The translations under genes and the position numbers were made by a program. The notes below the pieces were generated by a model. It worked only from the letters and a program-made list of their open reading frames with translations. It made no database searches and was not told the DNA's origin. From Candidatus Saccharimonadales bacterium (lineage in GTDB: Bacteria; Patescibacteriota; Saccharimonadia; Saccharimonadales; UBA10212), in NCBI GenBank assembly GCA_025450575.1, contig JANWHE010000016.1, positions 93,874-157,873 on the forward strand: 64,000 nucleotides of DNA, written 5' to 3'. This document shows positions 2,837 to 47,715 of this stretch, piece by piece; within the stretch, counting starts at the first letter, position 1; the number at the start of each line of letters is the position of its first letter.

Positions 2837-3622
2837 TCAGAACGCGTCGACCCGGGCGACACTGTTGTCGGCCGCCGAATCAAGGTATATCTGTACCGTG
2901 CTGCCGGGCTGTACCGCGGCAATCGTGGATTTGTTATAGCTCTGATCGCAGAACAAGGTCGTGGCCGTGTAGTTTTTGGATGCGATAGGCGCCACGGCAT
3001 TGCCCGTACTATCAAAGACATATTGGTTATCGGGCGAGAAAGTGATTTTGGAAGTGGCTTGGTCGACGCTGGCAACGGTTAAGCTGCCGCTGACTTGGTA
3101 GCCGCTAGTATCGCCCAGACAGACCGAGGAAGCGCCGGTAGCAGCGCTTGACTGCAGGCTGGCATAAGATCCCGGATTAGTGTTCAGATAGGACGAGCTG
3201 ACAGTCTGGCAGTTGTTCCCCTTCTTATGCGACGTTTCGACGCTGCTATCAAAGTAGCTCCCGTTAGGAGAAACCGTCGTCTGCTGGCTGCCGCCGGTTA
3301 TCCCGCCGGTAAGTAGGCTGGCCCAGCCGGCGTCAAAGCCACTGCTGGCGCTATGATAATCAAAACATATCTTATATTTGGACGCTCCCATGGTCTGATA
3401 GCTTACCGTCTTAGGCGCATCTTTGACGCCCAGGGCATCCAAAGACTGTGGGATGCTCCCACCGTGATTAGCCGAATATTCATCCAGCTTGGTGCCAATC
3501 TGCTCCACGGCTTGGTCCGTGGCTTTATCGGCCTTGGCCGCGCCGGCCTGGCCAAGCGCGTAACCTAAAGACGCCAGAGTTATAGCCATCAGTACTATGA
3601 AACCGATGTAATACTTCTTCAT
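2837..3622 (-). CDS. hypothetical secreted/membrane-anchored protein
   Basis: 261-aa ORF with an N-terminal hydrophobic signal/anchor (MKKYYIGFIVLMAITLASLGYALG). The mature part is Ser/Thr/Gly-rich. Confidence 0.55.
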   Translation of the reverse strand: MKKYYIGFIVLMAITLASLGYALGQAGAAKADKATDQAVEQIGTKLDEYSANHGGSIPQSLDALGVKDAPKTVSYQTMGASKYKICFDYHSASSGFDAGWASLLTGGITGGSQQTTVSPNGSYFDSSVETSHKKGNNCQTVSSSYLNTNPGSYASLQSSAATGASSVCLGDTSGYQVSGSLTVASVDQATSKITFSPDNQYVFDSTGNAVAPIASKNYTATTLFCDQSYNKSTIAAVQPGSTVQIYLDSAADNSVARVDAF

Positions 3623-3643
3623 ATTGATGCCGCCGCCATGACC

Positions 3644-4300
3644 CTACTTGATCAGGCGGTGTTCGTCCCTCCAGTAGTAGGCTAGGACGCCGCCGGCAAT
3701 CACCAGGACGACCGCCAGGTTGGCCAGGGCTTTGGGTATGGACGAGCCGTGGCTGCTGCTGGCGTGCTGCAGCAGCACGTAGACGAAATAAATCAGGTTG
3801 ACCAGTACCGCGGTGTAGGCGATTATCTGGGTAATCTGCGACCAGCGCCGCTTAGAGGGGTCGAACCGCAGCCCCGGGTCGGCCAGTTCGGCTTTTTTAA
3901 GCCTTAAGAAAAACCAGCCGAAAATCGGCACGCAGATTACCAGCGCCGAAGTCGGAACTACTACGTAGTTGAAGCCGCGGCTGCCGTTGAGCATATTTAA
4001 AATCACCCAGCCCAGCGTTAAGGCGCCTATCCAAAGGACGATTGTCATCATCCCGTACTCCACGCCCCGGACGCTTAATACCTCCAGCACCGGAATGGGC
4101 TTATCGGTTCCCGGATCGGTAAGAGGCGCAGCCGCCGGAGGTTCTGGAATAATCACTGGCTGAACCGGGCTGGGAACGGCGCTATGCTGGACCGCGGGCG
4201 AGAACACCTGGGCCGCCGCCTGCGGCGGAAGGGGCGTGTAAGCGGCCGCCTGCCCCGCAGCGTTATCGGGAGCAGCAGGATAAATAGTTTCTGTTTGCAT
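3644..4300 (-). CDS. hypothetical integral membrane protein with Pro/Ala-rich N-terminus
   Basis: 218-aa ORF with a ~65-aa Pro/Ala-rich N-terminal segment followed by about four predicted TM helices. Confidence 0.55.
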   Translation of the reverse strand: MQTETIYPAAPDNAAGQAAAYTPLPPQAAAQVFSPAVQHSAVPSPVQPVIIPEPPAAAPLTDPGTDKPIPVLEVLSVRGVEYGMMTIVLWIGALTLGWVILNMLNGSRGFNYVVVPTSALVICVPIFGWFFLRLKKAELADPGLRFDPSKRRWSQITQIIAYTAVLVNLIYFVYVLLQHASSSHGSSIPKALANLAVVLVIAGGVLAYYWRDEHRLIK

Positions 4301-9455: not shown

Positions 9456-10832
9456 ATGACTAAACACCCCTTAAAGTCCGGCCTGCAATCGTTGATGATC
9501 AGTGACGTGCCGGCTTATGCTAACAAGTTCTTCTACTCTCTTGGCTTCTTATCGATGACCTCATTTATGCTGCTGCTGGTTAGCGGCGTCATAATGGCCG
9601 TATTCGGTCCGGACTGGTGGCTGACCAGCTCGCCGGGTAGGTATCTGCGCAGTGTTCATCTGTGGGCTACTCAAGCATTCGTACTATTCATAATCCTCCA
9701 TCTGCTTATCGTCTTTTTAACTTCGGGGTTTAAAAAACCGCGCCGGCTGACTTGGGTCATCGGGGTTTTTATGTTCTTGTTCGTCCTGATGGAGGCGGAG
9801 TTCGGCTACGTACTGCGCGGTGACTACTCCAGCCAGTGGCGGGCGCTCCAGGGGGCCGACCTATATAACGGCACCGGTCTGGGATATTGGCTGCACAACA
9901 TAAACTACCGGCAGATATTCGGTCTGCACGTGGTAGTTATCCCGGCGGTTATAATCGGGCTGTTGTTCTTCCACTATCTGTTAGTCAGAGTTCTGGGCAT
10001 AGCCAAACCGCACCGCAAAGACGTGCATGTACCGACCGTCAAAGCCAACCATACCGTCCTATTCGTGCGCGGCGGCGCGCTTATAGCGTTAATTTTAGGC
10101 CTGGCGGCGTTCTTACCTTCGCCCTACATAAAACCCGATACCGCCCAAAGCATCGCCCAGTCCGATCCCAAAATCATCGCCCAGACCCTTGTAAAGGAAT
10201 TCGACCACTCATCCGACACCGCCACCTATATGGACAGTATTAATCCGTACAATTTCGATACCAGGAAGGTGTACATAAATGACCCTTACGCCCAGTACGT
10301 GGTGCTGACGCGGTCGCCGGATATGCTAAGCCGCTTCAACGCCCTGCCGCCGGCGGTCCAGCAGGCCCAGACCCAGGCCGCCGCCGACTTCTTCGACAAT
10401 TCCTATCCGGCCCAGCGGCCGGGCTCCGCTAATCCTCTGGAAAGCGTGGTGGTGTCTCTCACGGATATGGCGGCCGCTGGATTGTACGAACCGGCCCTTG
10501 ATTCCGCGCCGTCCGGAGGCGACCAATCCACTTATTCACTGCGCTTTTTGGCGGATACCGGGGTATTGGAAGATAACGCTACTTCACTCGGCATAACCAC
10601 CGACCAATACGGCATGCTGCGCGAAGAAAAAGGAACTATACCGCCCGGCGCGTGGTGGCTGGCGCCAATTGGACTGATGAACCATACCATTCTTGCCAAC
10701 GACGATAATGGCGACCGCGACGGCGCCATCATTTTGGGCTGTTTTCTGCTGCTGCTTATGGCTTTCCCGTTCATACCGGGGCTTAACCGCCTCCCGGAAT
10801 GGCTGAAAGTCTACAAACTTATCTGGCGGTGA
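9456..10832 (+). CDS. cytochrome b6/b N-terminal-domain protein with long C-terminal extension
   Basis: 458-aa ORF. It matches cytochrome b6 as I recall it: LRSVHLWATQ...ILHLL, GFKKPRRLTWVIGV (b6 has GFKKPRELTWVTGV) and FGLHVVVIP...FFHYLL. The His pairs H68/H82 and H158/H173 are spaced 14 and 15 residues apart, the b6-type spacing. Confidence 0.78.
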   Translation: MTKHPLKSGLQSLMISDVPAYANKFFYSLGFLSMTSFMLLLVSGVIMAVFGPDWWLTSSPGRYLRSVHLWATQAFVLFIILHLLIVFLTSGFKKPRRLTWVIGVFMFLFVLMEAEFGYVLRGDYSSQWRALQGADLYNGTGLGYWLHNINYRQIFGLHVVVIPAVIIGLLFFHYLLVRVLGIAKPHRKDVHVPTVKANHTVLFVRGGALIALILGLAAFLPSPYIKPDTAQSIAQSDPKIIAQTLVKEFDHSSDTATYMDSINPYNFDTRKVYINDPYAQYVVLTRSPDMLSRFNALPPAVQQAQTQAAADFFDNSYPAQRPGSANPLESVVVSLTDMAAAGLYEPALDSAPSGGDQSTYSLRFLADTGVLEDNATSLGITTDQYGMLREEKGTIPPGAWWLAPIGLMNHTILANDDNGDRDGAIILGCFLLLLMAFPFIPGLNRLPEWLKVYKLIWR

Positions 10833-35072: not shown

Positions 35073-35939
35073 CTAAGAACTTAGATTTAATTTCTGACTG
35101 ATATCGTTTAAGTGTTCGTCGTTATCGAACCGGATTATCAGCTGGCCGCCCTTGGCGGTATGCTTTATCTGCACCTTAGTACCCAGTTTCCGGCCGATAG
35201 ACTTAGTCAGTTCGGTCTCGCTGGCCGTCCGAGTGCGAGCCGATTTGGCGTCGGCTCCGGCTTTGGCGGCGGTAGCGAACTGTTCGGCTTGGCGGACGGT
35301 CCAGCCGTTGTTTTCGATACTACGTAAAAGTTCTCCTTGTTTTTCGGGCCAAGCCTTCAGCGACAGTATGGCGCGGGCGTGTCCTTCACTTATCCGGCCT
35401 TGACGCAGAGCCTCGCGGGCACTGTCCGGTAACTGTAGTAGGCGGGTCAAGTTACTGATAGTACTGGTGGCTTTGCCGAGTTTTTTAGCGATTTCATCAA
35501 GCCCCAGATTAAACTGCTGTTGTAATTTATAAACACTCAGCGCTTGCTCTAACGGAGACAAGTCTACTCTTTGAATGTTCTCTATCAGAGACAGCTCTAT
35601 TTCTTCCAGTTCGCGCATTGAACGGACGATAGCCGGAATTGTGTTCAGCTGGGCGGCTTGAGCTGCCCGCCAGCGGCGCTCGCCGGCAACGATTCGGTAG
35701 CCATCTTTGTGCCTGATGACGATGATCGGCTGCACGACGCCGTGCTGCTTGATACTGGCAGCCAGTTCGGCGAGCGACGACTCCTCGAACACCCGGCGCG
35801 GCTGGTCGGGGTTAGGCACGATGTCCTGTATAAGTAATTTCTGCACCCGCTCGTTATCTTCTTGCAAGATAGATTGGTCCAGGTCGGTGGAAATCAAAGC
35901 CCCTAGCCCTCGCCCTAACGATTGATTCTGTGCGCTCAT
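35073..35939 (-). CDS. parB: chromosome partitioning protein ParB/Spo0J
   Basis: 288-aa ORF with LGRGLGALI, the ParB box IVPNPDQPRR and an HTH. Confidence 0.92.
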   Translation of the reverse strand: MSAQNQSLGRGLGALISTDLDQSILQEDNERVQKLLIQDIVPNPDQPRRVFEESSLAELAASIKQHGVVQPIIVIRHKDGYRIVAGERRWRAAQAAQLNTIPAIVRSMRELEEIELSLIENIQRVDLSPLEQALSVYKLQQQFNLGLDEIAKKLGKATSTISNLTRLLQLPDSAREALRQGRISEGHARAILSLKAWPEKQGELLRSIENNGWTVRQAEQFATAAKAGADAKSARTRTASETELTKSIGRKLGTKVQIKHTAKGGQLIIRFDNDEHLNDISQKLNLSS

Positions 35940-35958
35940 GACTTAATTATACGATATT

Positions 35959-36717
35959 TCAGAGAGTTCTTTTCTCGACTTCACGAGCCAGGGCTTTGTA
36001 AGCCCGGGCGCCCTTGCTCCATTTATCATGTTCAATGATGGTCCGGCCGAAACTGGGCGCCTCGGCCAAGCGCACATTGCGCGGCACCACCGTCTCAAAC
36101 AGTTTGGCGCCGAAGTAATCCTCTAATTCCTTCTTGACTTGAGCCGATAAGGAGTTGCGACTGTCAAATAACGTAATCAAAACCCCCAGGATCTCTAGTC
36201 CTGGGTTGAGGGCCTGGCGGACCTGCTGGATGACACTCAGCAGCTGGCTCAAGCCTTCCAACGCGTAATATTCGGCCTGGACCGGGATTAACACCGAGTT
36301 AGCCGCCGATAAGGCGTTAACAGTCAGCAGCCCCAGGCTGGGAGGACAGTCTATGAAGATATAGTCATAGTTCAGCTCGGCCAGGGCCTGGCGCAGTTTG
36401 AGCTCCCGGTCGGTTTCGCTGACTAGCTCCACCTCGGCGCCGGCTAAATCGGCGTTGGATGGGATGATGTGCAGTTTGGAATTGACTTTCTGGATGGTCT
36501 GGGATGCTCCGGCCCGCGAAAACAGGACGTCGTACAATGTCGAAGCCTGGGCCTGCTTGTCTATACCAAGGCCGCTGGTGGAGTTACCTTGCGGATCGGC
36601 GTCGACCAGCAGCACGGAGTGCCCGGCCTTGGCCAGATAAGCCGCCAGGTTGATGGAGGTGGTGGTTTTGCCAACGCCGCCCTTCTGGTTCAGTACCGCG
36701 ATTATATTTTTAGCCAT
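35959..36717 (-). CDS. parA: ParA/Soj family partitioning ATPase
   Basis: 252-aa ORF with the deviant Walker A NQKGGVGKTTT. Confidence 0.92.
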   Translation of the reverse strand: MAKNIIAVLNQKGGVGKTTTSINLAAYLAKAGHSVLLVDADPQGNSTSGLGIDKQAQASTLYDVLFSRAGASQTIQKVNSKLHIIPSNADLAGAEVELVSETDRELKLRQALAELNYDYIFIDCPPSLGLLTVNALSAANSVLIPVQAEYYALEGLSQLLSVIQQVRQALNPGLEILGVLITLFDSRNSLSAQVKKELEDYFGAKLFETVVPRNVRLAEAPSFGRTIIEHDKWSKGARAYKALAREVEKRTL

Positions 36718-36819: not shown

Positions 36820-37536
36820 ATGGACGATATCCGCCGCCCTCATCACCAGCGACGCGATTTCGCTATGCGCCATCGCCCTCACCAGCCCCCGCCCAGTCCT
36901 AACTCTCCGGCTCCCGGTCCCGCGCCGGCGCCGGCCATTCCCCATCATACACCGGCCGCGGTCCCTCAGGACGGCCTGGCGCCGGCAGCCGCCTCCGAAA
37001 CCGGTTATGAACATTACGGCCGGCCGGCGCCGCGGCCTAATCTCCAGCCGGCCGCCAAAAAAAAGCTGCTGCCCAAGATCCGGCCCAGATACGCCGCGGC
37101 CGGTTTAGCCGCCGTCTTATTGATAGCCGCCGGCGCTTATCTGCTCACCCGGCCGGCCCAAAAATCCGGGTTTTCGGTAGCCCAGCTGGCCAAAAAGTCG
37201 GCTTTCAGCTTTTATTATCCCCAGCCGCTACCCAACGGCTACGCTTACGTGACGAAAATCAACGCCTTCCAGGGCGGCCAGGCGTACTTTATGCTGGCCA
37301 ACGGGTCCAAACATATTATCTTCCGCGAACAAGCGGCCGGCGGCCAAACGACCGGGGGCCTGAGCGGCTCCCATAATATCCGTTCGGCGGCCGGCACGGC
37401 GGCCATTGGCACCCAAGCCGGCCAGCCGGCCGCCAAAGTGCTGGCCGGGTCCACGCTGATATCTATTAATACCACCGGCTCGGTGCCGTCCGCCGATCTC
37501 ACCTGGGTTATCGATTCTCTGAAAACTGACCGTTAA
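36820..37536 (+). CDS. single-pass membrane protein, paralog A (Arg/Pro-rich N-terminus, conserved ectodomain; DUF4367-like, tentative)
   Basis: 238-aa ORF: MDDIRRP..RRDF, a Pro-rich linker, a TM helix (AAGLAAVLLIAAGAYLL), then YYPQPLPNGYAYV.. It shows clear similarity to ORFs 37576-38247 and 40290-40958. Confidence 0.65.
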   Translation: MDDIRRPHHQRRDFAMRHRPHQPPPSPNSPAPGPAPAPAIPHHTPAAVPQDGLAPAAASETGYEHYGRPAPRPNLQPAAKKKLLPKIRPRYAAAGLAAVLLIAAGAYLLTRPAQKSGFSVAQLAKKSAFSFYYPQPLPNGYAYVTKINAFQGGQAYFMLANGSKHIIFREQAAGGQTTGGLSGSHNIRSAAGTAAIGTQAGQPAAKVLAGSTLISINTTGSVPSADLTWVIDSLKTDR

Positions 37537-37575
37537 TGTTGCTAAGCGTAAGCGATTTAAGGTAAATTATCAGAT

Positions 37576-38247
37576 ATGGATGAGATGAGAGACCGCTACC
37601 GTATGCCGCGGCGGGATTACGCCGCACCGGTCCGCCGGCCAATGGCGCCTGCTCCTTCGTCTGCGCCGCCTAACCCAGCGGCTCCCGCCCCTGTCAGCCA
37701 AGCCCCGCAGCCTCAGCACGAGCCAAGCCCGTACCAAGCGCCGGCCAGACCGCCCCGCCGGGCTAAAAAACGCCGGCTACTGAAGTTATTTATCATCTTA
37801 CTGATCTTGGCGGCGCTGGCTGGTGGCGTCTTTTTGGCTTACCGTAAGTATTACGTCAAAAATCCCTTCCCGGCCGATATCCGCCAAAACGCCGGCCTTG
37901 ACCTGCTGTATCCCACTAAATTGCCGACAGGTTATACGATCGACCCCACCTCTATGCAGCAGACCAACGGCATATTACTGTACGATGCCACCAGCGGCAG
38001 CAACCGGCTGGTCTTCACTCTGCAAAAAACCCCTTCGACGTTCGATTTCGCCACTTTTTACAAACAGCAGCTGCAGGATAACCAGCAGTTCTCCACTCCT
38101 TACGGACAGGCGGCAGTCGGCAAGAACAGTAACCGTTATCTGGGCAGCTTAGTAGACGGTAATACTTGGCTGCTGCTCAGCACCAACACCTCCAGCTTAA
38201 GCGCCAGCGACTTCACCCAGACGCTTAATAGCCTCAAAAATTATTAG
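37576..38247 (+). CDS. single-pass membrane protein, paralog B
   Basis: 223-aa ORF: MDEMRDRYRMPRRDY, a Pro/Ala-rich linker, a TM helix (LFIILLILAALAGGVFLAY), then LLYPTKLPTGYTID.. Confidence 0.65.
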   Translation: MDEMRDRYRMPRRDYAAPVRRPMAPAPSSAPPNPAAPAPVSQAPQPQHEPSPYQAPARPPRRAKKRRLLKLFIILLILAALAGGVFLAYRKYYVKNPFPADIRQNAGLDLLYPTKLPTGYTIDPTSMQQTNGILLYDATSGSNRLVFTLQKTPSTFDFATFYKQQLQDNQQFSTPYGQAAVGKNSNRYLGSLVDGNTWLLLSTNTSSLSASDFTQTLNSLKNY

Positions 38248-38298
38248 TTTACAGATTCTAAAGGTATAATGGAGCTAGCTTTCACGGAATAAACAAAC

Positions 38299-40245
38299 AT
38301 GCGAAAAAACCCACTACCCAAAACTAAGGTAGCCAAAAGAGCTGTCAGTATGCTGGTCTTACTGATTTTCATATCGACCTTGATGTTTGTCTTCTATCGG
38401 CCGAGGGTACATGCCCAGGTCTTCCTGACAAGTGGAAATACCTGGACGGTACCCTCGGACTGGTCGAATGGCAATAATATTATCGAGGTCATAGGAGGCG
38501 GAGGCGGAGGCGGTGGTGGTTCTTCGGCTGGTCCTGGCAATGGCTGGGGTGGTGGTGGTGGTGGTGGTTATTCTAAGATTCTGAACACCAGCTTCACGCC
38601 CGGTACGGTTGTGACTATAGCCATTGGGGTGGCCGGCACGGCCGGAGCAGCCGGGGGTAATGACGGCGGCGCCGGCGGCGACACTTACCTATGCAGCGCG
38701 ACGACCAGCTGCTCGAGCATAACTGATACGAACGTGATCGTTGGCGCCAAAGGCGGCGGGGCCGGTACATCAACGGGTGGCGGCGCGGGCGGAGCAGCCG
38801 CTAGCGGCGTAGGCTTGAGCAGCTTCAGCGGTGGTACTGGTGGAGCCGGCGCCGGCGGAGCTGGTAACGCCGGAGGCGCCGGCGGATCGGCGGGCGGCGC
38901 GGGCGGACCTAGCGCCGATGGCAACGCAGGCGCTAACGGTTCAGGTGGTAGCGGTAACAGCGGCGGGGCTGGAGCTGCTGGTGGCCGGGCTGACGGCAGC
39001 GCCGGAGGCGCGGGCGGAACGGCCGGAACAGCCGGCGGCGGGGCCGGCGGAGCGGCTGGAAATGGGACTGAATATGATTCTACCCATGGTTCAGGTGGGG
39101 GTGGCGGCAGTGGTGGAGGCGGTGACCGTAGCGCTAACGGCGGGGCCGGCGGAGCTTCCGGTAATTACGGTGGAGGCGGTGGAGGCGGTGGAGGCGGCGG
39201 TCGTAGCGCCGTTGGTAGCGCTGGTGCTGTTGGCAAACAAGGCATCATCCGGATAAGCTATACTCAGGTAAGCCAGGCAGATTACCGTTGGCGGTCCGAT
39301 GACGGCAACGAAACCACTGGCTCTTCCCTGGCGGCTCAGGATACACCGGCCTCGATTAACAGTAGTTCCGCCGTACGATTAAGATTCCTGATTACTGACA
39401 ATGGTGAAAGCACCACTAACACCTATCGTTTAGAGTACGCTCCACACTTAGCAGGCTGTTACACCTGGACTACCGTACCGAATGTAGCTACCACCGAGCA
39501 CTTTAATATGTATAGCACTAGCAATTATACGGACCAGGCGGCCTCGACCAACGTATTATCGGGCCCGGCAGTCATCACCGACCCGTCCGGTTTCAGTTTC
39601 ACGGCCGGCAAGCTCGTCAAATCGACCTCCAACTCCGCGACGGTCACAATCGGCGGCGGCCAGTTCACAGAGATAGAGTATGCTTTCCAGGCCAATTCTA
39701 ACGCCACTTATTCATCCTACTGTTTCCGGGTGACCAACGCCGGCACGCCTTTGGATATTTATAATAATTACCCCATCCTGAATGTCCAGTACACACCTTC
39801 GGCACCGATGGTTTATAGCCCGGCCAGCAGTGCCACCGGAGTGTCGCGGCTGCCGATTTTCCAGATGAGGAGTACCGACCTTAATAATGACTATCTGCAG
39901 TACGTAGTCGAAGTTTGCTCGGCGAACAGCTTCCCTTGCGGCGCGGCTTACAACAAGACATACAATGAGACCAACGCCTGCTGGAGCCAGCAGGATCTGC
40001 AGTCTGGCACGGCTTTCACCGGCTCCAGCGATTTGAACGTCTCGGCGATGGCCTATTGCCAGATCCCGGCCGCCGATTTACTCAGCCCCAATACTACGTA
40101 TTATATGCGCGCCAAAGCCATCGACCCCGGCGGCAGCAACACCTACAGCGCCTATTCATCGGTAGTCAGTTTTACCACATCGACCCTAGACGTCCAGATA
40201 AACGGCGGCTCGACAATCAAAGGTGGCACTAAAATCGGCGGTTAA
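38299..40245 (+). CDS. secreted glycine-rich-domain protein with C-terminal beta-sandwich/FN3-like modules
   Basis: 648-aa ORF with an N-terminal signal/anchor. TSGNTWTVPSDW..IEVIGGGGGGGGG is followed by about 270 aa of Gly/Ala-rich sequence ending in GIIRISY. A non-repetitive C-terminal half follows (YRWRSDDGNET..RLRF..YRLEY, ..TTYYMRAKAIDPGG). Confidence 0.7.
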   Translation: MRKNPLPKTKVAKRAVSMLVLLIFISTLMFVFYRPRVHAQVFLTSGNTWTVPSDWSNGNNIIEVIGGGGGGGGGSSAGPGNGWGGGGGGGYSKILNTSFTPGTVVTIAIGVAGTAGAAGGNDGGAGGDTYLCSATTSCSSITDTNVIVGAKGGGAGTSTGGGAGGAAASGVGLSSFSGGTGGAGAGGAGNAGGAGGSAGGAGGPSADGNAGANGSGGSGNSGGAGAAGGRADGSAGGAGGTAGTAGGGAGGAAGNGTEYDSTHGSGGGGGSGGGGDRSANGGAGGASGNYGGGGGGGGGGGRSAVGSAGAVGKQGIIRISYTQVSQADYRWRSDDGNETTGSSLAAQDTPASINSSSAVRLRFLITDNGESTTNTYRLEYAPHLAGCYTWTTVPNVATTEHFNMYSTSNYTDQAASTNVLSGPAVITDPSGFSFTAGKLVKSTSNSATVTIGGGQFTEIEYAFQANSNATYSSYCFRVTNAGTPLDIYNNYPILNVQYTPSAPMVYSPASSATGVSRLPIFQMRSTDLNNDYLQYVVEVCSANSFPCGAAYNKTYNETNACWSQQDLQSGTAFTGSSDLNVSAMAYCQIPAADLLSPNTTYYMRAKAIDPGGSNTYSAYSSVVSFTTSTLDVQINGGSTIKGGTKIGG

Positions 40246-40289
40246 AGCCGCTTGTGGTTTAAACCACCAATACGTTATCTTATCTATAG

Positions 40290-40958
40290 ATGGATGAAGA
40301 GTTACGTAGCCGACACCGGCGCGATTTTCGGAACGAGGTGATTGGGCGGCGCCCAGCTCGGGCCCAAAAGCCCTTAAGGGCAGAGCCGGCCGAAGTTATC
40401 AATTTTAGGCCCGTTGAAATGCATAAACCGTCTACCAGGCCCCGCCACGGCCGCCGCAAAGGGATTTTAATTGGCTTGATGGTTCTTTTATTGGCCAGCG
40501 CCGGCATTGTCCTATACTTGTGGTGTCCCTGGCATAAGAACCTCCAGGCTACCCAAAAAATCCCAGTCGTACCCGCAGCTATTTCAAATGGTGTCAGCTA
40601 TAAGGTTTACTACCCTGACCCGGCTAAATTGCCGGCTGGCTACACGTTGGTCCGCAGTTCATTCACTATGCCGGTTAAGAACGGCGTGGCTTACTGGGTG
40701 AGCTATGATAATGGCAAACATATAGTCTTTTCGGTGCAAAGCAAGCCCTCCGATACCGAACTCCAGACTTTCAATAGCAACTACATCCCCCTGCGCAACG
40801 ATTACCAGACAGGGGTGGGCCAGGCCGAGATTGGCGCCTACCATAACCAAACCCTGGTCAGCCTGCCGGCTACCAACGGCCCTTGGATAGTCATATCCGC
40901 CCCCCAGGACATCAGCCAGGACAAGCTAAAACAAGTCCTCAGCTCGATTACTAAATAG
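40290..40958 (+). CDS. single-pass membrane protein, paralog C
   Basis: 222-aa ORF: MDEELRSRHRRDF..GRRP, a TM helix (ILIGLMVLLLASAGIVLYLW), then VYYPDPAKLPAGYTLV..HIVFSVQ.. Confidence 0.65.
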   Translation: MDEELRSRHRRDFRNEVIGRRPARAQKPLRAEPAEVINFRPVEMHKPSTRPRHGRRKGILIGLMVLLLASAGIVLYLWCPWHKNLQATQKIPVVPAAISNGVSYKVYYPDPAKLPAGYTLVRSSFTMPVKNGVAYWVSYDNGKHIVFSVQSKPSDTELQTFNSNYIPLRNDYQTGVGQAEIGAYHNQTLVSLPATNGPWIVISAPQDISQDKLKQVLSSITK

Positions 40959-40959
40959 T

Positions 40960-43900
40960 CTAATTGCCGGTCACTACGTATTGGTCGGTGGTTATTGTAT
41001 TGGACGCGCTATTGGCGCTCCAGACCGGGAAGAGATAAAGGTTAGCCGCCGAAGACGTAGTGAGGCCGGTAGTGCTGGCCGTGGATACCATGTTGAATAC
41101 ACCGAACTGACCGGTGGCGGTAGTGGTGGTGACAGTCTGCAGGTAGAACAGCCCCTGGCCGTCCATGCTGGTAGTCGAGAAGCAGACTATCTTGTAATCG
41201 ATTATCCATTGGGCGTTGCTTATCGTTGAGCCGGCAGTGGCCGTCGGCGATGCCGCGCCGATAAGCGTATCGCTGGTACGGGTGGTGTTGGTGCCATAGC
41301 GGACTTCCATCTGCAGGGTCGGGGCGCTGGTCGTACCATAGTGGCCGCGGGCATAGATATGTATCACCCGTCCGGCCTGGCAGTAGTTGGCCGGAATCGA
41401 TGCCGCGCCCAGATTGCCGCAAGCCGTCGTACAGGTGTTGATGGCCGATCCAATGGAAGTATTAGAGTAAAGCAAGCCGTTACAGGTAGTCCAGGCGCCG
41501 GCCACGCCGCACATGAAGTTATGGTCGGTTGAACTGTAGAACATGGCGCCGTTTATCTCGGTGGCAGCGTTGGAAATCGTACCCTGGTTGAAGGTTGAAT
41601 CGCTGTCGGTGTCGAGCACTAGCAGCGTACCGGTAGTGTCGGATGTGCCGATGTTCACAGTGCCGGTGCTGGTGTTAACGTTCAAGAGGCTGGTGCCAAG
41701 ACCGCCGGCGTTGGTGCCGCGAACCGCGAATATTATACCCGCCAGGCTGGTATCGGCGTCCTGGATGTCGAACGCACCGGTATCAGTGCCGCCGGCATTC
41801 AGTTTAATTTCCGGAGTAGTGCTACCTGTCGAGGAGTTATATGTAGTCTGCAATGTAGGCGTGCTGATGGAACCCATCGACGACCAGGTGCCGTTCAGGC
41901 AGCCGCGGAAAGTATTAGAGGTAGTGTTATAGTAGAAGGCCCCGTTGATACAAGTCGGATCGGCGCTGGCCGAACCGAATTTTACTACCGCTGAACCATT
42001 GACCTGCACCTGGCCAGAGCCGCCGGAGTTAAGTATCAAGTAATCCGATGAACCGCTGCCGCTCTGCAGAGTCAGCGTACCGGCGGTAGTCTGCCAGCTA
42101 GAGGCAGCGTGGCCGGTAATATTAACTGCTGCCCCGCTACCAGAATTGACCGTTATGGCACCGCTGCCGGTACCGACCGCTACCGTACCGCTGCTGGCCG
42201 TGTAGTTAGCTGTGCTGGTAGCTGTATCGTAATAAATCAAGGCGTAATTGGTTGAGCCGCCGTTTTCCATAACCCGCAGGGCCCGGCCGCTGGTATCAAC
42301 CGACAAGACGGTGGCGTTACCGGAGTTCTGGACGACGAAACCAGCGGTCGAATCAGTGTTGGTATGGAAAGTGGTCTGCCCGGAGCTATTGACCGTTATG
42401 GAGTTAGCCGCGTTGGCGTTAACCTGCAGCTCAAACCCCTTGCCGGAAGCCGCCTTGACCGAGGCCGCGCCGTTAGCGCCGTCATAGCCAAACTGCGCGC
42501 GGCTATTATTGGCCCCGTAGTAAAAGGAGTTGCTGGAGCTATCGGTGGTAGCCAGCAAATCAACGGCTGAATTGGTACCAGCGCCGGCGTAAATTTTTAC
42601 CCCTTGGGTGGCGGTCAGAGCCTGTGAGGTCGAGCCCAGCGTAATGTAATCGCTGGTAGTGTCGATATTAAACAGGCTGTTGTTGCTGCTGTTCTGTACT
42701 TGGAGAGCCGCCGTTGAATTGGTGGTCACGCTTTGAATCAAGACGCCGTTGTTGGTCGACGAATTCGTTTTTAGGTTTATGCCGGCATCAGATTTCAAGT
42801 TGACCACGCTGCTGCCGCTGTTAGAACCGATATTGACCGTCTGCGTAGTGGTGCTGGCGCCATTGCCGATATTAAAGGTGTGGGTGACGTCGGTGTTGCC
42901 CAGATTGATACCGCCGGTGTTACCGCCCTCGATATTGACGGCGTTGGTCGTGTTACCATTGCTGCCGATAGTTATAGTGTTGGTCGCCGAAGCGTTGGCG
43001 TTAGTAGCGATATTGATAGTCGAGTTACTGGCGTTGCTGGCCGTCAGGCCGATGTTGACCGTCTGGGCGTGGCCGCCGACGTTGCCGATCTTGACGGTAC
43101 CGGCGGCGCCGGTATCGCTATCGATGGTCACGCTGTTGCCGCCGGAAGTAGTGTCGACCGCTATAAAGTTATTGTTGCTGGCGTCTTGGACCACGAAAGC
43201 CGTGGTGCTGCCGCTGCCGGTGGTGTGAACCTTGGTGGCGCCGGTATTGCCAACGCCGAAGACTACTGTTCCCAGGCCTCCCCCGCCGCCGTTACTGGCG
43301 TTGATATCCAGGATATCGGCACCTACCGTACTATCGGCGTCTTGGATATTAAGAGTACTGCGCGTGCTATCAAGTTTGATTTCCGGTGTCGTGCCGCCAA
43401 TTGAGTTAGTGTAGCCGAGCTGAAGCGTACTGGCGTCAATACCGGCGATTGTCCAGGCTGAACCTATGTATATGAGCGTCGCCGAACTGCCCGGTGCCAG
43501 ATTATAGCTGCCCGCCCCCGTATTCAGCGTGAAAGCATTGGTGCCGCCGTTACCTACATAAAGCAGCCGGCCAGTGGTCGCCGTCGTCGGCGCCGGGACC
43601 GTGAAAGTCAGGCCTGTAGCCGTAGCCGTGGCGCTGATGGTGGTATTGTTATCGACCAAAGACTGGGTGATGGTGCTGTTAGCGCCACTGGTGTAGGTGT
43701 TAGATGCGAAAACCGTGCCGCCGGCCACAGTTACGGTCGGCGTGGAGGTATTGACGCTGAAGACAGCGGCGCTACCAGTGGTCTGAACCTGGAAGGCCGA
43801 CGTGGAGTTGGCGGCGTTCTTGACGGTCACGTTACCGGCGGCGCCGACGCCGGTATTCAGTCCGGCGACCAGAGTGATATTGCCACCGGCGTTGTCACCG

Positions 43901-46900
43901 GATCCGCCGGCGGCGCCGCCATTGATGCTCACGTTGCCACCGGCGGATCCGGTGCTGCTGCCGTTGCCGGCGCCCCCATAGAGGTTCAAGTTGCCGCCGG
44001 CCGTCCCGGTCGCCGATGAACCCGTACCCTTGACGTTGAAGTTATTCGGTGCGGCATTCGTTCCGCTGCCATCGGCGTTGCCTAAGTACAAGTTATTGCT
44101 CTGATCAAAAGTAGCTCGCCCCGTGTTGTTAGTTATAATCTGCAAGCTGTTGGCGTCTTTGGTTCCCAAGCTGGCTAAGCTGCCGGTCAGGCTGCCTAAG
44201 GTGTTGCCGCCGTTCACGAAAGCCACGCCGGTTCCGGTAGTGATACAAGCCGCCAGTTTGTTGGAGCTATTCCGGCACAGGTAAGAGGTGTTATCAGCTG
44301 TGCCTAGGGCTCCGGCGGCCACAATGATGCCGCCGCCCGGCTGCAAGGTTAGGCTGCCGCCGATGGTCGAACCGATAGTAATCGTGCTGGCGCTGCTGGC
44401 CGTAGTATTGGTCGAACCGATGTTTATCGTCTGGGTTACGGCCACGCCGGTAGAGTTACCTATCTGGACAGTCGAACCGGTCTGAGTATTGCCAAGATAT
44501 AGAGTGCCACCGTTGGTGTCGGCCTGTATGTAAGTATGGCTGCCAGCGGCGTCCTGCACCTGGAAGCCGTTAGTGTTGGTTACTTGGAAAGAGTTAGTGC
44601 TAGAGAAAGTGTTAGCCGCGTTATTCAGGACGATGTGGGAGCTATCGCTAAGGTTAGTGCTAGCGATTTGCGAGCCGCCGACTTCGTAGAATTTAGTGGC
44701 CGGAATATTGACATTACCATCCTTATCAACGCTGAATTTCTCAGCGCCCCCATTTTGCAAGCTCAACAGCTTAGCTCCGGCTGTAGAATAGGTATTGGCA
44801 GTATTGAGCGTAAAGCCGACAGCGCTGGCGCCGTCGGCCAGATTGCTGAATAGCTTGTTGGTGGTGGCGTCAACGCCCAGCACCGTGACGCTAGAGGAGT
44901 TCTGAACCTGGAAAGCCGTGCTTGAGGTGTTGGTTATCAGCAACGGCGCCGGCTCGTTGGCTTTCTTCAGATAAAAATCATCGAAGTAGAACGTGCCGGT
45001 GGTTGCCGTAGCTTTGACGCTAGCCGCCAGCCGCAGGAAGTAAGAACCGGCCGGGACAGTGGCGGTTATCGTCTTCTTGACATAGCTGGTGCCTGGCAGT
45101 CCGGTGTCGGCGTTGCTGAAGGTCGTGCTGGCTTTGTCTTTGTCGTCAAATTCTATGTAGATTCCGGCATCACCGGTAGCGCCAGCGCTGTTCTTGACCC
45201 AGGCTTCGGCGTAGATAGTATCGCCCGGATGTACTGCGAAGTACGGTGTCGTTACGGCGTGAGTCGTGGAGTTGCCGGTTACCTGCAGTTCGTAATTGCC
45301 GCTGTGGGCATTGGCCGAGCTGTTGGTTATCACCTGCGTGGCGCTAGGCGTATACCAGCCGGTGGCATCGGTTGTCCCGCTGGATTCAAAACTAGGATTT
45401 TGGATTTCATTGCCCAGGTTATCTACCCCGTTATTAATCACGTAACCGTCGCTGGTGTTGGCATTAAGCAAAGCCGAAGCCGTTGAGGTCTGGATTCGAA
45501 AAGCGGTGTTTGAATCACTGAAGTTTTCAAAAGCGGCGGCGCCGGTAGTGGACAGACTTTGAACCACGTGATTATTAGTTATGATATTCAGACCATTCGA
45601 ATCAATGGTGCCCAAGACTCCAGTACCTCCAAAGCCGCTATTTCCGCCGTTGACAAAGGCGGTGCCCGTCCCAGAAATAAACCCGCAGCTGGAACTGGCC
45701 TGAATACACAGCGTTCCATTTTCGGCCGGTAAATGGATAGTGTAGCCGGTACTGCTTGGGTTAGTGGCATCAAGCGTTATGGACCCAGTCTGGGCGGCGA
45801 AATTAAACTTTAATTTGCCGGTAATGCCACTGGCGCCGGAGTTGCCCAGAATCACCGTATCACCCGCGGTATCGACAGTTAAGACAGACTTGCTTGAGGC
45901 CGAATCGTTTATTACTAGACCGGCGGCATTATTGTTGGCTAAGGTGGTCAATCCGCCATTAGCGATCGTCAGTACCGGCGTGGCATTATTCTTAAAGACG
46001 GCGATATTCCCAGTCGAGGTTGAATTAGACACATTCAGGGCGTCGCCGCTGGTCGAGCCGGTCAATGAAGTCAGCGCCGATGTTACCGTCAAGGTTTTAC
46101 TGGCCGCCACCGTCGTGTTGCCGCCCAGGCTGATGCCGCCGGAACCGGAGTTCAGACTCAGCGCCCCGCCATTAACGCTATTGCCGATCGTGACGTTGGT
46201 CAACCCGGTACCAGCCGGCGTGCCGGCGCCGATATTAATGGTCTGGGTCTTGCCGGTAGCGGTATTGGCGTTGCCGATGTTAATGGTATTGGTATCCGTT
46301 GATTGGCCGAAGGTCAGGCCGCCGGTTTCGGATGTCGAACCAATTGTGATAGTACTGGCAGCCGTATCCGGGTTGATATTAAGGCCGCCGCCATCGCTTA
46401 TAGTAAGAACGGGGGTAGAATTATCATTGAATACGGCGATATTGCCGGTCGAGGTGGAGTTGCTGACGTTTAGAGCGTCGCCGCTGGTCGCGCCGGTCAG
46501 CGATGTTAAGGCCGATGTGACAGACAGAGTCTTGCCGGCCGCCACGGTCGTATTATTGCCCAGAGTTATCCCGCCTCCGCCATCTATGGCCGTCACCGCC
46601 GAACCACCGGTCTGGCCGATAGTTATGCCGCTGGCGCTAGTCGTACCGATTGATATGGTGCCGGTAGTCCCGGTGCCGGATTTCGTGCCCGAGTCGATGG
46701 TGATATTGCCGCTGCTGCTGTTGGTGCCGCCGGCGGCATCGCCGGACTTGATAGTCACGCTGCCGGAACTTAAGCTGCTGCCGGTCTCGTTGCCGCTGCG
46801 CAAGGTTATGGCCGCGGTATTGGCGGCCGCCGAATCAGTGGTCTGGACCAGCGGCGTCTGCAGCGCCGTGCCAATAATCCCCGTTCCGCTGATGTTAAAG

Positions 46901-47580
46901 CCGGCCGTCTGGACGGCCGCTGTCTGGTTCTGAATAAAATCCGTACCCGTGGTTGTTTCGAACCCGCAGGCACTAGACGTCTGCAGACAAATCGTACCAG
47001 ATGCGTCCGGCAGCAGAATATTTGGATCGTTGGCCACCGTGTTAAAGCCCAGCGTTCCGCGGTGGGCGCCGCTGGTCAGTGCCAGCTGGCCAGCCGTGAA
47101 GGCGTAGGGTAAAGCCGTCAGCGCGATGCTGTGGCCGCTGTTCTGCATCTCCCCGTCCCAACTCGGTGTACCCGTACCGCCGATTCTCATAGTCAGCCAC
47201 AGCTGTTGATCCCAGTTAATACTACCGAAGGCCGTAACACTGCCCAGATTGACACTGAAATAACCGTTTATCACAGGAATGACATTAGCGCCGGTTCGGG
47301 TTTCCATCCACAGACAAGCGCCGCTACAACTACCCTGAGACCCAGTGGTACTGTCGGCATTATAAATCTTAAACTCAATGTTGTAGTTGCCGTCCGGCAC
47401 GATGCCCCCGGCGCTGTTCAGTAGCCGGGCCTGGAAATTAAGGGTCGAAGAGGTGGTTGCCGCTTGCGCCACCGGAGCGGCTACCGACATGAAAACGCCC
47501 ACAAACAAAGCGAACCCCAATAGGGGGGCCATTAGCCATATATTGACCGCGCGCGTACGCGCAAGTAGGCGTCGATGCAT
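40960..47580 (-). CDS. giant secreted surface protein (2206 aa) with Thr/Ser/Gly/Asn-rich repeats and a CBM4/9-like carbohydrate-binding module
   Basis: Single uninterrupted ORF with a signal peptide (..FMSVAAPVAQA/ATT). The motif [AG]F.VQ(N/D/T)....(V/I)D recurs at least 7 times. A jelly-roll-like module spans aa 717-873 (NPSFESS..GW..HSGNYELQV..FYFDDFYLKK). The C-terminal region is Cys-containing. Confidence 0.85.
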   Translation of the reverse strand: MHRRLLARTRAVNIWLMAPLLGFALFVGVFMSVAAPVAQAATTSSTLNFQARLLNSAGGIVPDGNYNIEFKIYNADSTTGSQGSCSGACLWMETRTGANVIPVINGYFSVNLGSVTAFGSINWDQQLWLTMRIGGTGTPSWDGEMQNSGHSIALTALPYAFTAGQLALTSGAHRGTLGFNTVANDPNILLPDASGTICLQTSSACGFETTTGTDFIQNQTAAVQTAGFNISGTGIIGTALQTPLVQTTDSAAANTAAITLRSGNETGSSLSSGSVTIKSGDAAGGTNSSSGNITIDSGTKSGTGTTGTISIGTTSASGITIGQTGGSAVTAIDGGGGITLGNNTTVAAGKTLSVTSALTSLTGATSGDALNVSNSTSTGNIAVFNDNSTPVLTISDGGGLNINPDTAASTITIGSTSETGGLTFGQSTDTNTINIGNANTATGKTQTINIGAGTPAGTGLTNVTIGNSVNGGALSLNSGSGGISLGGNTTVAASKTLTVTSALTSLTGSTSGDALNVSNSTSTGNIAVFKNNATPVLTIANGGLTTLANNNAAGLVINDSASSKSVLTVDTAGDTVILGNSGASGITGKLKFNFAAQTGSITLDATNPSSTGYTIHLPAENGTLCIQASSSCGFISGTGTAFVNGGNSGFGGTGVLGTIDSNGLNIITNNHVVQSLSTTGAAAFENFSDSNTAFRIQTSTASALLNANTSDGYVINNGVDNLGNEIQNPSFESSGTTDATGWYTPSATQVITNSSANAHSGNYELQVTGNSTTHAVTTPYFAVHPGDTIYAEAWVKNSAGATGDAGIYIEFDDKDKASTTFSNADTGLPGTSYVKKTITATVPAGSYFLRLAASVKATATTGTFYFDDFYLKKANEPAPLLITNTSSTAFQVQNSSSVTVLGVDATTNKLFSNLADGASAVGFTLNTANTYSTAGAKLLSLQNGGAEKFSVDKDGNVNIPATKFYEVGGSQIASTNLSDSSHIVLNNAANTFSSTNSFQVTNTNGFQVQDAAGSHTYIQADTNGGTLYLGNTQTGSTVQIGNSTGVAVTQTINIGSTNTTASSASTITIGSTIGGSLTLQPGGGIIVAAGALGTADNTSYLCRNSSNKLAACITTGTGVAFVNGGNTLGSLTGSLASLGTKDANSLQIITNNTGRATFDQSNNLYLGNADGSGTNAAPNNFNVKGTGSSATGTAGGNLNLYGGAGNGSSTGSAGGNVSINGGAAGGSGDNAGGNITLVAGLNTGVGAAGNVTVKNAANSTSAFQVQTTGSAAVFSVNTSTPTVTVAGGTVFASNTYTSGANSTITQSLVDNNTTISATATATGLTFTVPAPTTATTGRLLYVGNGGTNAFTLNTGAGSYNLAPGSSATLIYIGSAWTIAGIDASTLQLGYTNSIGGTTPEIKLDSTRSTLNIQDADSTVGADILDINASNGGGGGLGTVVFGVGNTGATKVHTTGSGSTTAFVVQDASNNNFIAVDTTSGGNSVTIDSDTGAAGTVKIGNVGGHAQTVNIGLTASNASNSTINIATNANASATNTITIGSNGNTTNAVNIEGGNTGGINLGNTDVTHTFNIGNGASTTTQTVNIGSNSGSSVVNLKSDAGINLKTNSSTNNGVLIQSVTTNSTAALQVQNSSNNSLFNIDTTSDYITLGSTSQALTATQGVKIYAGAGTNSAVDLLATTDSSSNSFYYGANNSRAQFGYDGANGAASVKAASGKGFELQVNANAANSITVNSSGQTTFHTNTDSTAGFVVQNSGNATVLSVDTSGRALRVMENGGSTNYALIYYDTATSTANYTASSGTVAVGTGSGAITVNSGSGAAVNITGHAASSWQTTAGTLTLQSGSGSSDYLILNSGGSGQVQVNGSAVVKFGSASADPTCINGAFYYNTTSNTFRGCLNGTWSSMGSISTPTLQTTYNSSTGSTTPEIKLNAGGTDTGAFDIQDADTSLAGIIFAVRGTNAGGLGTSLLNVNTSTGTVNIGTSDTTGTLLVLDTDSDSTFNQGTISNAATEINGAMFYSSTDHNFMCGVAGAWTTCNGLLYSNTSIGSAINTCTTACGNLGAASIPANYCQAGRVIHIYARGHYGTTSAPTLQMEVRYGTNTTRTSDTLIGAASPTATAGSTISNAQWIIDYKIVCFSTTSMDGQGLFYLQTVTTTTATGQFGVFNMVSTASTTGLTTSSAANLYLFPVWSANSASNTITTDQYVVTGN
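45952..46134 (-). repeat. internal protein repeat, copy 2 (aa 483-543 of the giant protein)
   Basis: ISLGGNTTVAASKTLTVTSALTSLTGSTSGDALNVSNSTSTGNIAVFKNNATPVLTIANGG. It is near-identical to copy 1, which lies 145 aa upstream. Confidence 0.75.
46387..46569 (-). repeat. internal protein repeat, copy 1 (aa 338-398 of the giant protein)
   Basis: ITLGNNTTVAAGKTLSVTSALTSLTGATSGDALNVSNSTSTGNIAVFNDNSTPVLTISDGG. Confidence 0.75.
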
Positions 47581-47667: not shown

Positions 47668-47690
47668 GAAAAAACGGCCTTTCGGGCCGT
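47668..47690 (-). terminator. intrinsic terminator of rplU
   Basis: Stem ACGGCC(47674-47679)/GGCCGT(47685-47690). On the minus strand a T5 run follows, about 25 nt after the rplU stop. Confidence 0.65.
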
Positions 47691-47715
47691 CACTTATCCA
47701 CACCTTGACTACAGT

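Follow-up and report, generated by a model that had tools for sequence, protein, structure and literature searches.

A giant modular protein of a Saccharimonadales bacterium as a candidate host-attachment fibre with a family-specific N-terminal domain and phage-like binding modules

How do ultrasmall episymbiotic bacteria find and hold their hosts? To our knowledge, the factors implicated so far are limited to type IV pili and a few proteins with lectin domains. The question is raised anew by a stretch of 64,000 nucleotides (nt) from a Candidatus Saccharimonadales bacterium (GenBank assembly GCA_025450575.1, contig JANWHE010000016.1, positions 93,874 to 157,873; the whole stretch is called the window hereafter), in which one gene encodes a protein of 2206 amino acids (aa). 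A preliminary description of this DNA had proposed a giant surface protein with an embedded carbohydrate-binding module (CBM), a candidate adhesin. We consider it probable that the protein is an exported, cell-associated fibre, held by its N-terminal domain, in which two lectin-type modules bind a target surface and specificity changes by exchange of cassettes and tip. Its sequence features make it a strong candidate for host attachment and a putative adhesin. The N-terminal family domain, the phage-like C-terminal knob, the kinship of the CBM-like module with actinophages and the exchange of cassettes were absent from the preliminary description. Coordinates are collected in Table 1.

The 6.6-kb open reading frame (ORF) is real and intact in independent data. 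Contigs of four independent soil metagenomes match the gene at ≥99% identity with 0 indels (coverage is patchy and depth low), and 17 contigs from JGI metagenomes carry a syntenic ortholog (P0002, 2194 aa) without interruption. The composition is as previously noted: T (15.7%), G (13.2%), S (11.6%), A (11.1%) and N (9.7%) make up 61% of the residues. A signal peptide had also been proposed, and the N-terminus (MHRRLLARTRAVNIWLMAPLLGFALFVGVFMSVAAPVAQA/ATT, the slash marking the AxA site) does have a basic n-region and a hydrophobic core. The same kind of leader is found in 68 of the 69 homologs whose N-terminal domain begins at residue 25-60, and the AxA-type site is conserved in the family alignment A1. 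Public gene calls begin at Met17 (window 47532; P0001, 2190 aa), without the basic n-region; an exact search for P0001 yielded no recorded contig. Met1 (47580) is the more likely start, since the ortholog and most homologs retain a leader of ~38-40 residues; no Shine-Dalgarno sequence was found upstream of either start. The Cys pairs noted earlier lie at the places given and have disulfide-type spacing: 15 of the 16 Cys belong to seven short-range CxnC motifs, C2133 being the exception, and the Cys85/Cys89 pair is invariant across 41 aligned family members. Leader and short-range Cys pairs are therefore as expected of an extracytoplasmic protein. Judged from these features, the protein is presumably exported and its leader perhaps cleaved. 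A pilin was considered and rejected, because the leader is not a class III signal. The recurrent strand motif of the preliminary description stood in its repeated core and failed in its spacing: the literal pattern [AG]F.[VI]Q.{7}[VI][DN] has 0 matches, the true gap being 9, and [AG][FL].[VI]Q.{9}[VI][DN] occurs 5 times (shuffle mean 0.002), the core [AG][FL].[VI]Q 8 times (shuffle mean 0.19).

The whole protein matched nothing in Pfam, PHROGs or NCBIfam, and the leaderless protein matched no PDB sequence; the matches reported below all arise from isolated modules. The N-terminal domain is the part that defines the family. When 119 homologs were mapped onto the protein, the first ~250 residues were common to ~104 of them and the other 50-residue blocks to 6-31. 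A search with aa 38-215 placed the domain in 99 of 120 listed proteins (P0001, the window's own, being counted), in each case immediately behind the leader. The window protein, first row of alignment A1, carries all its invariant columns (NFQxR, DGxY, CxxxC, WDQ) and scores 295 bits against the family profile; by sequence it belongs to an unnamed Saccharimonadia family, made up of a leader and then a beta-sandwich of ~165 aa. This family is very large. The profile of the domain retrieved 9,790 clusters (50% identity) at E ≤1e-3, 2,874 at ≤1e-10 and 970 at ≤1e-30, and among the best 150 matches listed the domain lies near residue 40 in proteins of ~200 to 5,600 aa. Two peptide patterns from the domain gave 305 confirmed stretches in species-representative genomes; among the 80 listed, almost all titles name Saccharibacteria, Saccharimonadales, Saccharimonadia or Patescibacteria. 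Several genomes have two family copies, some in tandem (5 kb apart). Named homologs are labelled Candidatus Saccharibacteria or Saccharimonadales almost throughout. These labels and the genomic matches both point to a Saccharibacteria-type bacterium, in line with the earlier premise of an episymbiont lineage.

The AlphaFold2 model of the N-terminal domain is a beta-sandwich (mean pLDDT 80.8). The domain has no match in Pfam, NCBIfam or PHROGs, and its profile gave only a chance match (E 2) among PDB sequences. Compared with PDB folds, the model retrieved only generic Ig/macroglobulin-like sandwiches, none significant (E ≥0.04, TM ≤0.36). Literature searches found no paper describing the family. 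With no Pfam model and no solved-structure relative, the domain is a candidate for a new domain family definition. Other family members carry inserts of CBM_4_9, Kelch, LVIVD, Beta_helix/GH28-related, Peptidase_S74, DUF4082 and Hep_Hag type, and homolog P0099 has a precomputed PF05658 match. Peptidase_S74, an intramolecular chaperone of trimeric fibres, is found in two family members and, by analogy, hints at a homotrimeric fibre. The window protein itself has no YadA-type C-terminal beta-barrel or Hep_Hag head repeats in Pfam scans; strands of the type xINIGx, spaced by 10-15 residues, are its sole resemblance to the head repeats of trimeric autotransporters.

The first of the two putative binding modules is embedded in the stalk. 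Its limits and sequence were given correctly in the preliminary description, which compared it to CBM4/9 jelly rolls and proposed domain searches. Against Pfam CBM_4_9 (PF02018), the window module scores 24.3-24.6 bits (E 4e-5; 4.4e-5 at 24.3 bits) for a gathering cut-off of 25.9. Homologous modules are present in 24 of the 120 listed proteins (P0001 counted), at variable positions, and 12 of these 24 match PF02018 at E ≤0.01 (best E 4.7e-8). Because the window copy stays below the cut-off while half of the homologous modules match, it is better regarded as a divergent relative of CBM_4_9 than as a formal member. The claim thus holds as one of relatedness, and it is further upheld by solved structures: the alignments of the module profile with 2zew (E 2e-4) and 2xom (E 1e-3) take in the entire module, beginning at its NPxFE strand near the N-terminus and closing at its C-terminal YFDD strand, and cover both solved modules in full. 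The first, which we take to be a CBM16 module, comes from an S-layer associated endoglucanase, the second, presumably a CBM61 module, from an arabinogalactan endo-beta-1,4-galactosidase.

The best PDB match of the profile is to a phage protein, the central fibre gp20 of mycobacteriophage Douge (residues 203-319, E 3.3e-6). Phage profiles are also matched more strongly than Pfam: PHROG 16363 at E 1.2e-9 and the minor tail protein families 346, 746 and 3493 at E 1.6e-8 to 1.3e-6. A tblastn search with the module in 50,697 phage genomes returned 96 records, 93 of them actinophages (hosts Gordonia 44, Mycobacterium 38, Streptomyces 6, Arthrobacter 4, Microbacterium 1), and the genes matched are mostly annotated as minor tail protein. 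Profile alignment (hhalign) gave a probability of 94% with Hawkeye gp31 (residues 407-558) and of 88% with DelRio gp26. Actinophages make up roughly a tenth of such phage collections, so that their enrichment among the relatives of the module is strong; with weak single matches and many near-duplicate genomes, its size is uncertain. By these comparisons the module appears to be more closely akin to the minor tail proteins of actinophages than to CBMs in general. In the Douge study (PMC13033339), central-fibre domains are reported to bind the surface of M. smegmatis and, on arrays, fragments of arabinomannan/lipoarabinomannan (LAM) and alpha-glucan, the assayed domain possibly differing from the residues matched here.

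The same comparisons bear on a reading in which the protein would be an adhesin for non-host substrates, i.e. plant, fungal or soil polysaccharides, or for attachment in biofilms. The gene derives from soil metagenomes, and the solved modules that were matched are parts of an endoglucanase and of an arabinogalactan beta-galactosidase; CBM16 and CBM61 modules bind plant-type glucans and galactan. On the other side, the module has its nearest kin, by profile and by solved structure, among phage tail proteins, which target bacterial envelopes, and the family hardly occurs outside a lineage that is obligately host-associated. We regard attachment to non-host substrates as unlikely.

The second putative binding module is the C-terminal knob. 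The last 170 residues recur in about a dozen full-length homologs, in C-terminal fragments on short contigs and in three small phage-encoded proteins. Giant proteins that have the knob invariably carry it as their very last part. With the final 240 residues as query, 15 proteins were found, mostly ends of giant genes cut by contig ends. The three small relatives are complete (177-214 aa) and are encoded on phage-like contigs with capsid, portal, terminase, tube, Gp77 or Gp80 genes, close to genes for Gp77, Gp80, tube or Laminin_G_3 proteins. They align to the knob along their whole length, with the common motifs IPANY..GR and W-SANSASNTIT, and neither Pfam nor PHROGs has a family for them; 24 IMG/VR viral contigs of 35-70% GC carry relatives of one of the three. 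The small phage proteins are probably an undescribed receptor-binding knob. A tblastn search with the knob in the 50,697 phage genomes and a scan of viral contigs with it gave no match.

AlphaFold2 modelled aa 1955-2206 with a mean pLDDT of 77. The 10-residue blocks of the knob reach 71-94, mostly >85, and the first nine blocks of the modelled region, in the pre-tip segment, 46-69. Foldseek comparison of the knob with viral models gave 103 matches at E ≤1e-3 (best E 4.4e-11, TM up to 0.58), among them the capsule depolymerase of Klebsiella phage KP34 and a phage 'pectate lyase superfamily' protein. The predicted fold of the knob is thus typical of the distal ends of phage receptor-binding proteins (RBPs).

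That the knob resembles the C-terminal domain of a capsule depolymerase and a phage protein of the pectate lyase superfamily could also mean that the protein degrades glycans, as an enzyme that is secreted or kept on the surface. Its stalk would then hide a catalytic beta-helix, which the CBM would bring to its substrate, an arrangement known from many glycoside hydrolases and phage tailspikes. Beta_helix or GH28-related domains exist in the family members P0044 and P0087, a weak Phage_depo_C match (E 0.031) covers aa ~1335-1377 of the window protein, and CBM_4_9 modules usually accompany glycanases. Neither the whole protein nor its tiles, however, matched any catalytic family in Pfam, NCBIfam, PHROGs or PDB sequence searches, and the phage relatives of the CBM-like module are fibre or minor tail proteins. 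A depolymerase seems to us quite improbable. The conserved N-terminus and variable C-terminus would also suit a polymorphic toxin or a protein that delivers effectors, exported by its conserved end and toxic at its tip. Here the tip is a beta-sandwich of lectin or receptor-binding-protein type, common to small proteins of phage structural regions; no toxin family was matched in the Pfam scans, and no immunity-type gene lies downstream, as the next gene is convergent. Lacking an immunity gene and having a lectin-like tip, the protein is most improbable as a toxin, and this candidate was rejected.

The comparison with the ortholog gave direct insight into how the protein varies. P0002 is encoded in the same gene order as in the window (IleRS-L21-giant-653aa-219aa-238aa-ParA-ParB). 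The window protein is 78% identical to it over aa 1-218 and 68% overall over aa 605-1996, with 82-98% in aa 1001-1450. P0002 lacks aa ~200-620 and has, instead of the last ~200 residues, another, longer C-terminus. In the window protein the missing part, cassette A, has a copy of the junction motif at either boundary (LPDASGTICLQTSSACGF and LPAENGTLCIQASSSCGF), and the single junction of P0002 (residues 187-222) aligns to both copies. In these alignments modules have been swapped between orthologs at a repeated motif of disulfide type. The identity pattern and the bounding of the cassette by junction repeats give the architecture, as read from sequence, the logic of phage tail fibres: a conserved proximal end followed by exchangeable stalk and tip cassettes.

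Since tiled self-comparison without composition correction is dominated by low complexity, and self-BLAST of the whole protein is uninformative, we trust four repeats alone. The junction repeat (aa 147-216 vs 580-643) has 37% identity. Within cassette A, aa 326-420 and aa 471-585 are 57% identical, and a 188-nt duplication (nt 45953-46140 / 46388-46575) has kept 73% nt identity; as it lies inside a cassette missing from the ortholog, it points to a recent expansion of the stalk. This is the only direct repeat of ≥40 nt wholly within the gene. A 41-nt pair with 71% identity (42777 / 57342) is chance-like. A diversity-generating retroelement target was rejected, as no pair of template and variable repeats is present in the 64-kb window.

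An observation in the distal stalk concerns a stretch of 122 nt (window 43473-43594, aa 1329-1370, APTTATTGRLLYVGNGGTNAFTLNTGAGSYNLAPGSSATL). Other contigs, from three soil metagenomes, match it at ≥95% identity and continue in frame into unrelated GC-rich sequence on both sides, and depth is roughly doubled there. This divergence on both sides and the doubled depth suggest that another gene or organism contains a near-identical mini-cassette. Its carrier was found neither by metagenome scans that used the loose-end sequences nor by a protein search with aa 1296-1404. The stretch overlaps the weak Phage_depo_C match.

Cassette exchange also bears on a structural role. In this reading the protein would be a coat or S-layer-type protein, forming an outer layer that shields or spaces the cell or defends it against phages and predators, and its modules would bind the cell's own wall polymers or exopolysaccharides. 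The Thr/Ser/Gly/Asn/Ala-rich, charge-poor composition would suit such a layer, the conserved N-terminal domain could be a wall-binding domain, and nearby genes encode further envelope proteins as well as a wall-polymer ligase of LCP type. On a cultivated relative, moreover, a diffuse outer layer has been seen (PMC11880426). On the other hand, no SLH or other known S-layer anchoring domain was found with Pfam and NCBIfam in the whole protein or its tiles, and genomes contain multiple paralogs with differing distal binding modules. Replacement of tip and cassettes between close orthologs suits target recognition better than a self-assembling lattice. A coat protein is therefore rather unlikely.

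We thus prefer the exported, cell-associated fibre of a soil-dwelling Saccharimonadia (TM7) episymbiont, which could work as follows. The Sec leader, conserved in the family, would export the protein. The N-terminal beta-sandwich, sole part common to the whole family, would by analogy hold it on the cell's own envelope. The stalk, ~1,700 Thr/Ser/Gly/Asn/Ala-rich residues arranged in cassettes with disulfide-clamped junctions between them, may be fibrous and would project the distal modules. Contacts would be made by the mid-stalk CBM_4_9-like module and by the C-terminal knob: the homology of the first and the fold similarity of the second are observed, and binding is what they suggest. Specificity would evolve through swaps of cassettes and tip, as seen against the syntenic ortholog and in the family. 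A cell-wall glycan of the bacterial host would be the most likely target, and this host is plausibly an actinobacterium. Actinobacteria are the hosts of cultivated Saccharibacteria, and essential envelope proteins of Southlakia with glycan-binding domains are proposed adhesins (PMC10633639); attachment of Mycosynbacter depends on the mycolic-acid layer of its host (PMC11880426).

Several points weigh against this reading. The protein has no recognised anchor: the C-terminus (...TITTDQYVVTGN) has neither an LPXTG motif nor a hydrophobic segment or tail, contrary to a sortase-anchored protein, and there is no SLH domain, so that cell association is assumed. The window copy of the CBM-like module falls 1.3-1.6 bits short of the Pfam gathering score. 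Single phage tblastn matches are weak (E ~1e-3, 27-32% identity), and the phage collection is actinophage-rich, many of the matched genomes being near-identical. Matches of the knob to solved structures are also weak (TM ~0.3): first the CBM2 of the Dit of Lactobacillus phage J-1 (5LY8, E 1.8e-4), then legume lectins. Finally, the knob is uninformative on which host is bound, because its phage relatives span contigs of 35-70% GC.

Table 1. Coordinates of the giant gene, its parts and associated features (window positions unless otherwise stated; the slash marks the AxA site)
Feature	aa	Position	Strand	Remarks or basis
Whole gene		40960..47580	-	2206 codons + stop; ATG start; largest ORF in the 64-kb window
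Signal peptide or signal anchor	1-40	47461..47580	-	Basic n-region, ~20-aa hydrophobic core, VAQA/A
Family-defining N-terminal domain	41-206	46963..47460	-	Beta-sandwich; invariant Cys85/Cys89; ends in junction motif 1 (LPDASGTICLQTSSACGF)
Stalk cassette A	207-615	45736..46962	-	T/S/G/N/A-rich; xINIGx-type strands; internal duplication; absent from ortholog
Junction motif 2	616-633	45682..45735	-	LPAENGTLCIQASSSCGF; repeat of the N-domain end; apparent recombination point of cassette A
CBM_4_9-like module	717-873	44962..45432	-	Type found in phage minor tail proteins; Pfam, PHROG, PDB profile
Long distal stalk	874-1954	41719..44961	-	Low-complexity; AFxVQ-x9-VD strand motifs; third Cys junction aa 1102-1112
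Pre-tip segment	1955-2035	41476..41718	-	Small Cys-clamped hairpin NGAMFYSSTDHNFMCGVAGAWTTC; alignment A3
C-terminal knob	2036-2206	40963..41475	-	Beta-sandwich; AlphaFold2, Foldseek, family alignment
CxnC motifs	85/89, 198/205, 625/632, 1102/1112, 1877/1894, 2024/2033, 2050/2054/2067 (CTTAC...C)			Sequence
Intrinsic-terminator-like hairpin + T-run		47673..47691	-	Directly after rplU (L21); sequence
Four genes convergent with the giant gene		36820-40958	+	Conserved beside it in the ortholog locus
Small knob-homologous phage proteins		L006/L007 (10001-10645 / 3304-3948), L008 (4655-5212), L010 (7296-7829)		Relatives L092-L115

The genomic context is that of a chromosomal gene. One flank carries the genes for L21 (rplU), IleRS (ileS) and a class II ribonucleotide reductase. 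The other has four envelope-type genes, then ParA/ParB (assigned by synteny and gene length against L001) and, beyond them, an LCP ligase, an HtrA-type protease, several aminoacyl-tRNA synthetases, FtsZ/FtsA and PriA. As the flanks are of housekeeping type and the order is the same at the ortholog locus, the gene is chromosomal, and a prophage or a virion-attached tail fibre was rejected. The hairpin and T-run after rplU indicate that the giant gene is transcribed as its own unit. Three of the four convergent genes are paralogs; their products measure ~220-240 aa and combine an N-terminus rich in Pro and Arg, a single membrane segment and a YYP..LP.GY ectodomain. The fourth product (648 aa) is exported, contains a very long region rich in Gly and has an end that weakly resembles fn3. 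No Pfam family covers any of the four, and they look like an envelope-protein cluster.

Other observations in the window are as follows. The perfect 9-mer noted earlier upstream of the gene is confirmed (TGTGGATAA on the strand of the gene, 47702-47694). On the + strand (TTATCCACA, 47694-47702) it is DnaA-box-like, lies between the stop codon and the terminator of rplU, and is ~11 kb from the ParA/ParB-like genes (35073-36717, by synteny with L001); chance would give about 0.5 copies over the two strands of 64 kb, so that a single copy is not significant alone. An Rfam scan of the whole window (1-64000) found no family at its gathering score. At 9456-10832 (+) a cytochrome b-like membrane protein is encoded (Cytochrom_B_N_2, E 4e-19); the genome appears to be one of Saccharimonadia, and such genomes usually lack respiratory chains.

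What emerges is a very large unannotated family, largely confined to Saccharibacteria, with one conserved end and interchangeable phage-like binding modules. We tentatively propose, as a possibility that we still hold doubtful, that Saccharimonadia recognise their hosts by a large, fast-recombining, phage-fibre-like family whose receptor-binding modules are pooled with those of phages of the same hosts. If so, the CBM-like module shared with tail proteins of Gordonia, Mycobacterium and Streptomyces phages would be a case of this common pool, and the host range of episymbionts would be readable, perhaps predictable, from their cassettes, as it is for phages. Should the fibres mediate attachment, metagenome sequences would show host range directly, with the cassettes as its markers. 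A testable guess at host group and ligand class, namely actinobacterial wall glycans, also follows from the actinophage-like module.

Among known systems, the minor tail or central fibre proteins of actinophages (Douge gp20, 8ZDO/8ZDP; Hawkeye gp31; DelRio gp26 of a Gordonia phage; PHROGs 346/746/3493) have a homologous CBM-like jelly-roll module ending in ...TGTxWFDD...K. They are likewise fibrous and modular: their attachment end is conserved, and their distal binding modules can be exchanged. The similarity is limited to ~110-150 residues at 27-35% identity. Unlike these fibres, the window protein has a Sec leader, is encoded on the chromosome between rplU/ileS and housekeeping genes on the parAB side, lacks a virion-attachment domain and is two to four times longer; it may work like a tail fibre, but it is not one. 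The module also differs from typical CBM_4_9 modules and from 2ZEW/2XOM in sitting inside a fibre instead of being attached to a glycoside hydrolase. The knob shares with the C-terminal domains of phage RBPs and depolymerases (K63 depolymerase of Klebsiella phage KP34, D1L302; CBM2 of the J-1 Dit, 5LY8) a predicted beta-sandwich and a position at the extreme C-terminus, but with only 14-21% identity, its sequence-level relatives being stand-alone proteins of 177-214 aa from uncultured phages. The lectin-type envelope proteins SEML1_0315, 0890 and 0891 of Southlakia epibionticum, proposed binders of host glycans (PMC10633639), come from the same phylum-level lineage and lifestyle. Their domain families differ from those of the window protein, being VCBS, dockerin and FN3. 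Trimeric autotransporters, RTX adhesins (MpIBP) and LPXTG repeat adhesins are also very long, repetitive and exported, with ligand-binding modules on a stalk; the window protein in contrast has no beta-barrel translocator, no RTX or type I secretion signal, no LPXTG and no Ig-like tandem repeats. Giant modular adhesins and lectin-bearing envelope proteins of Patescibacteria are known kinds, and what is new here is a very common, undescribed N-terminal domain joined to the modular logic of phage fibres.

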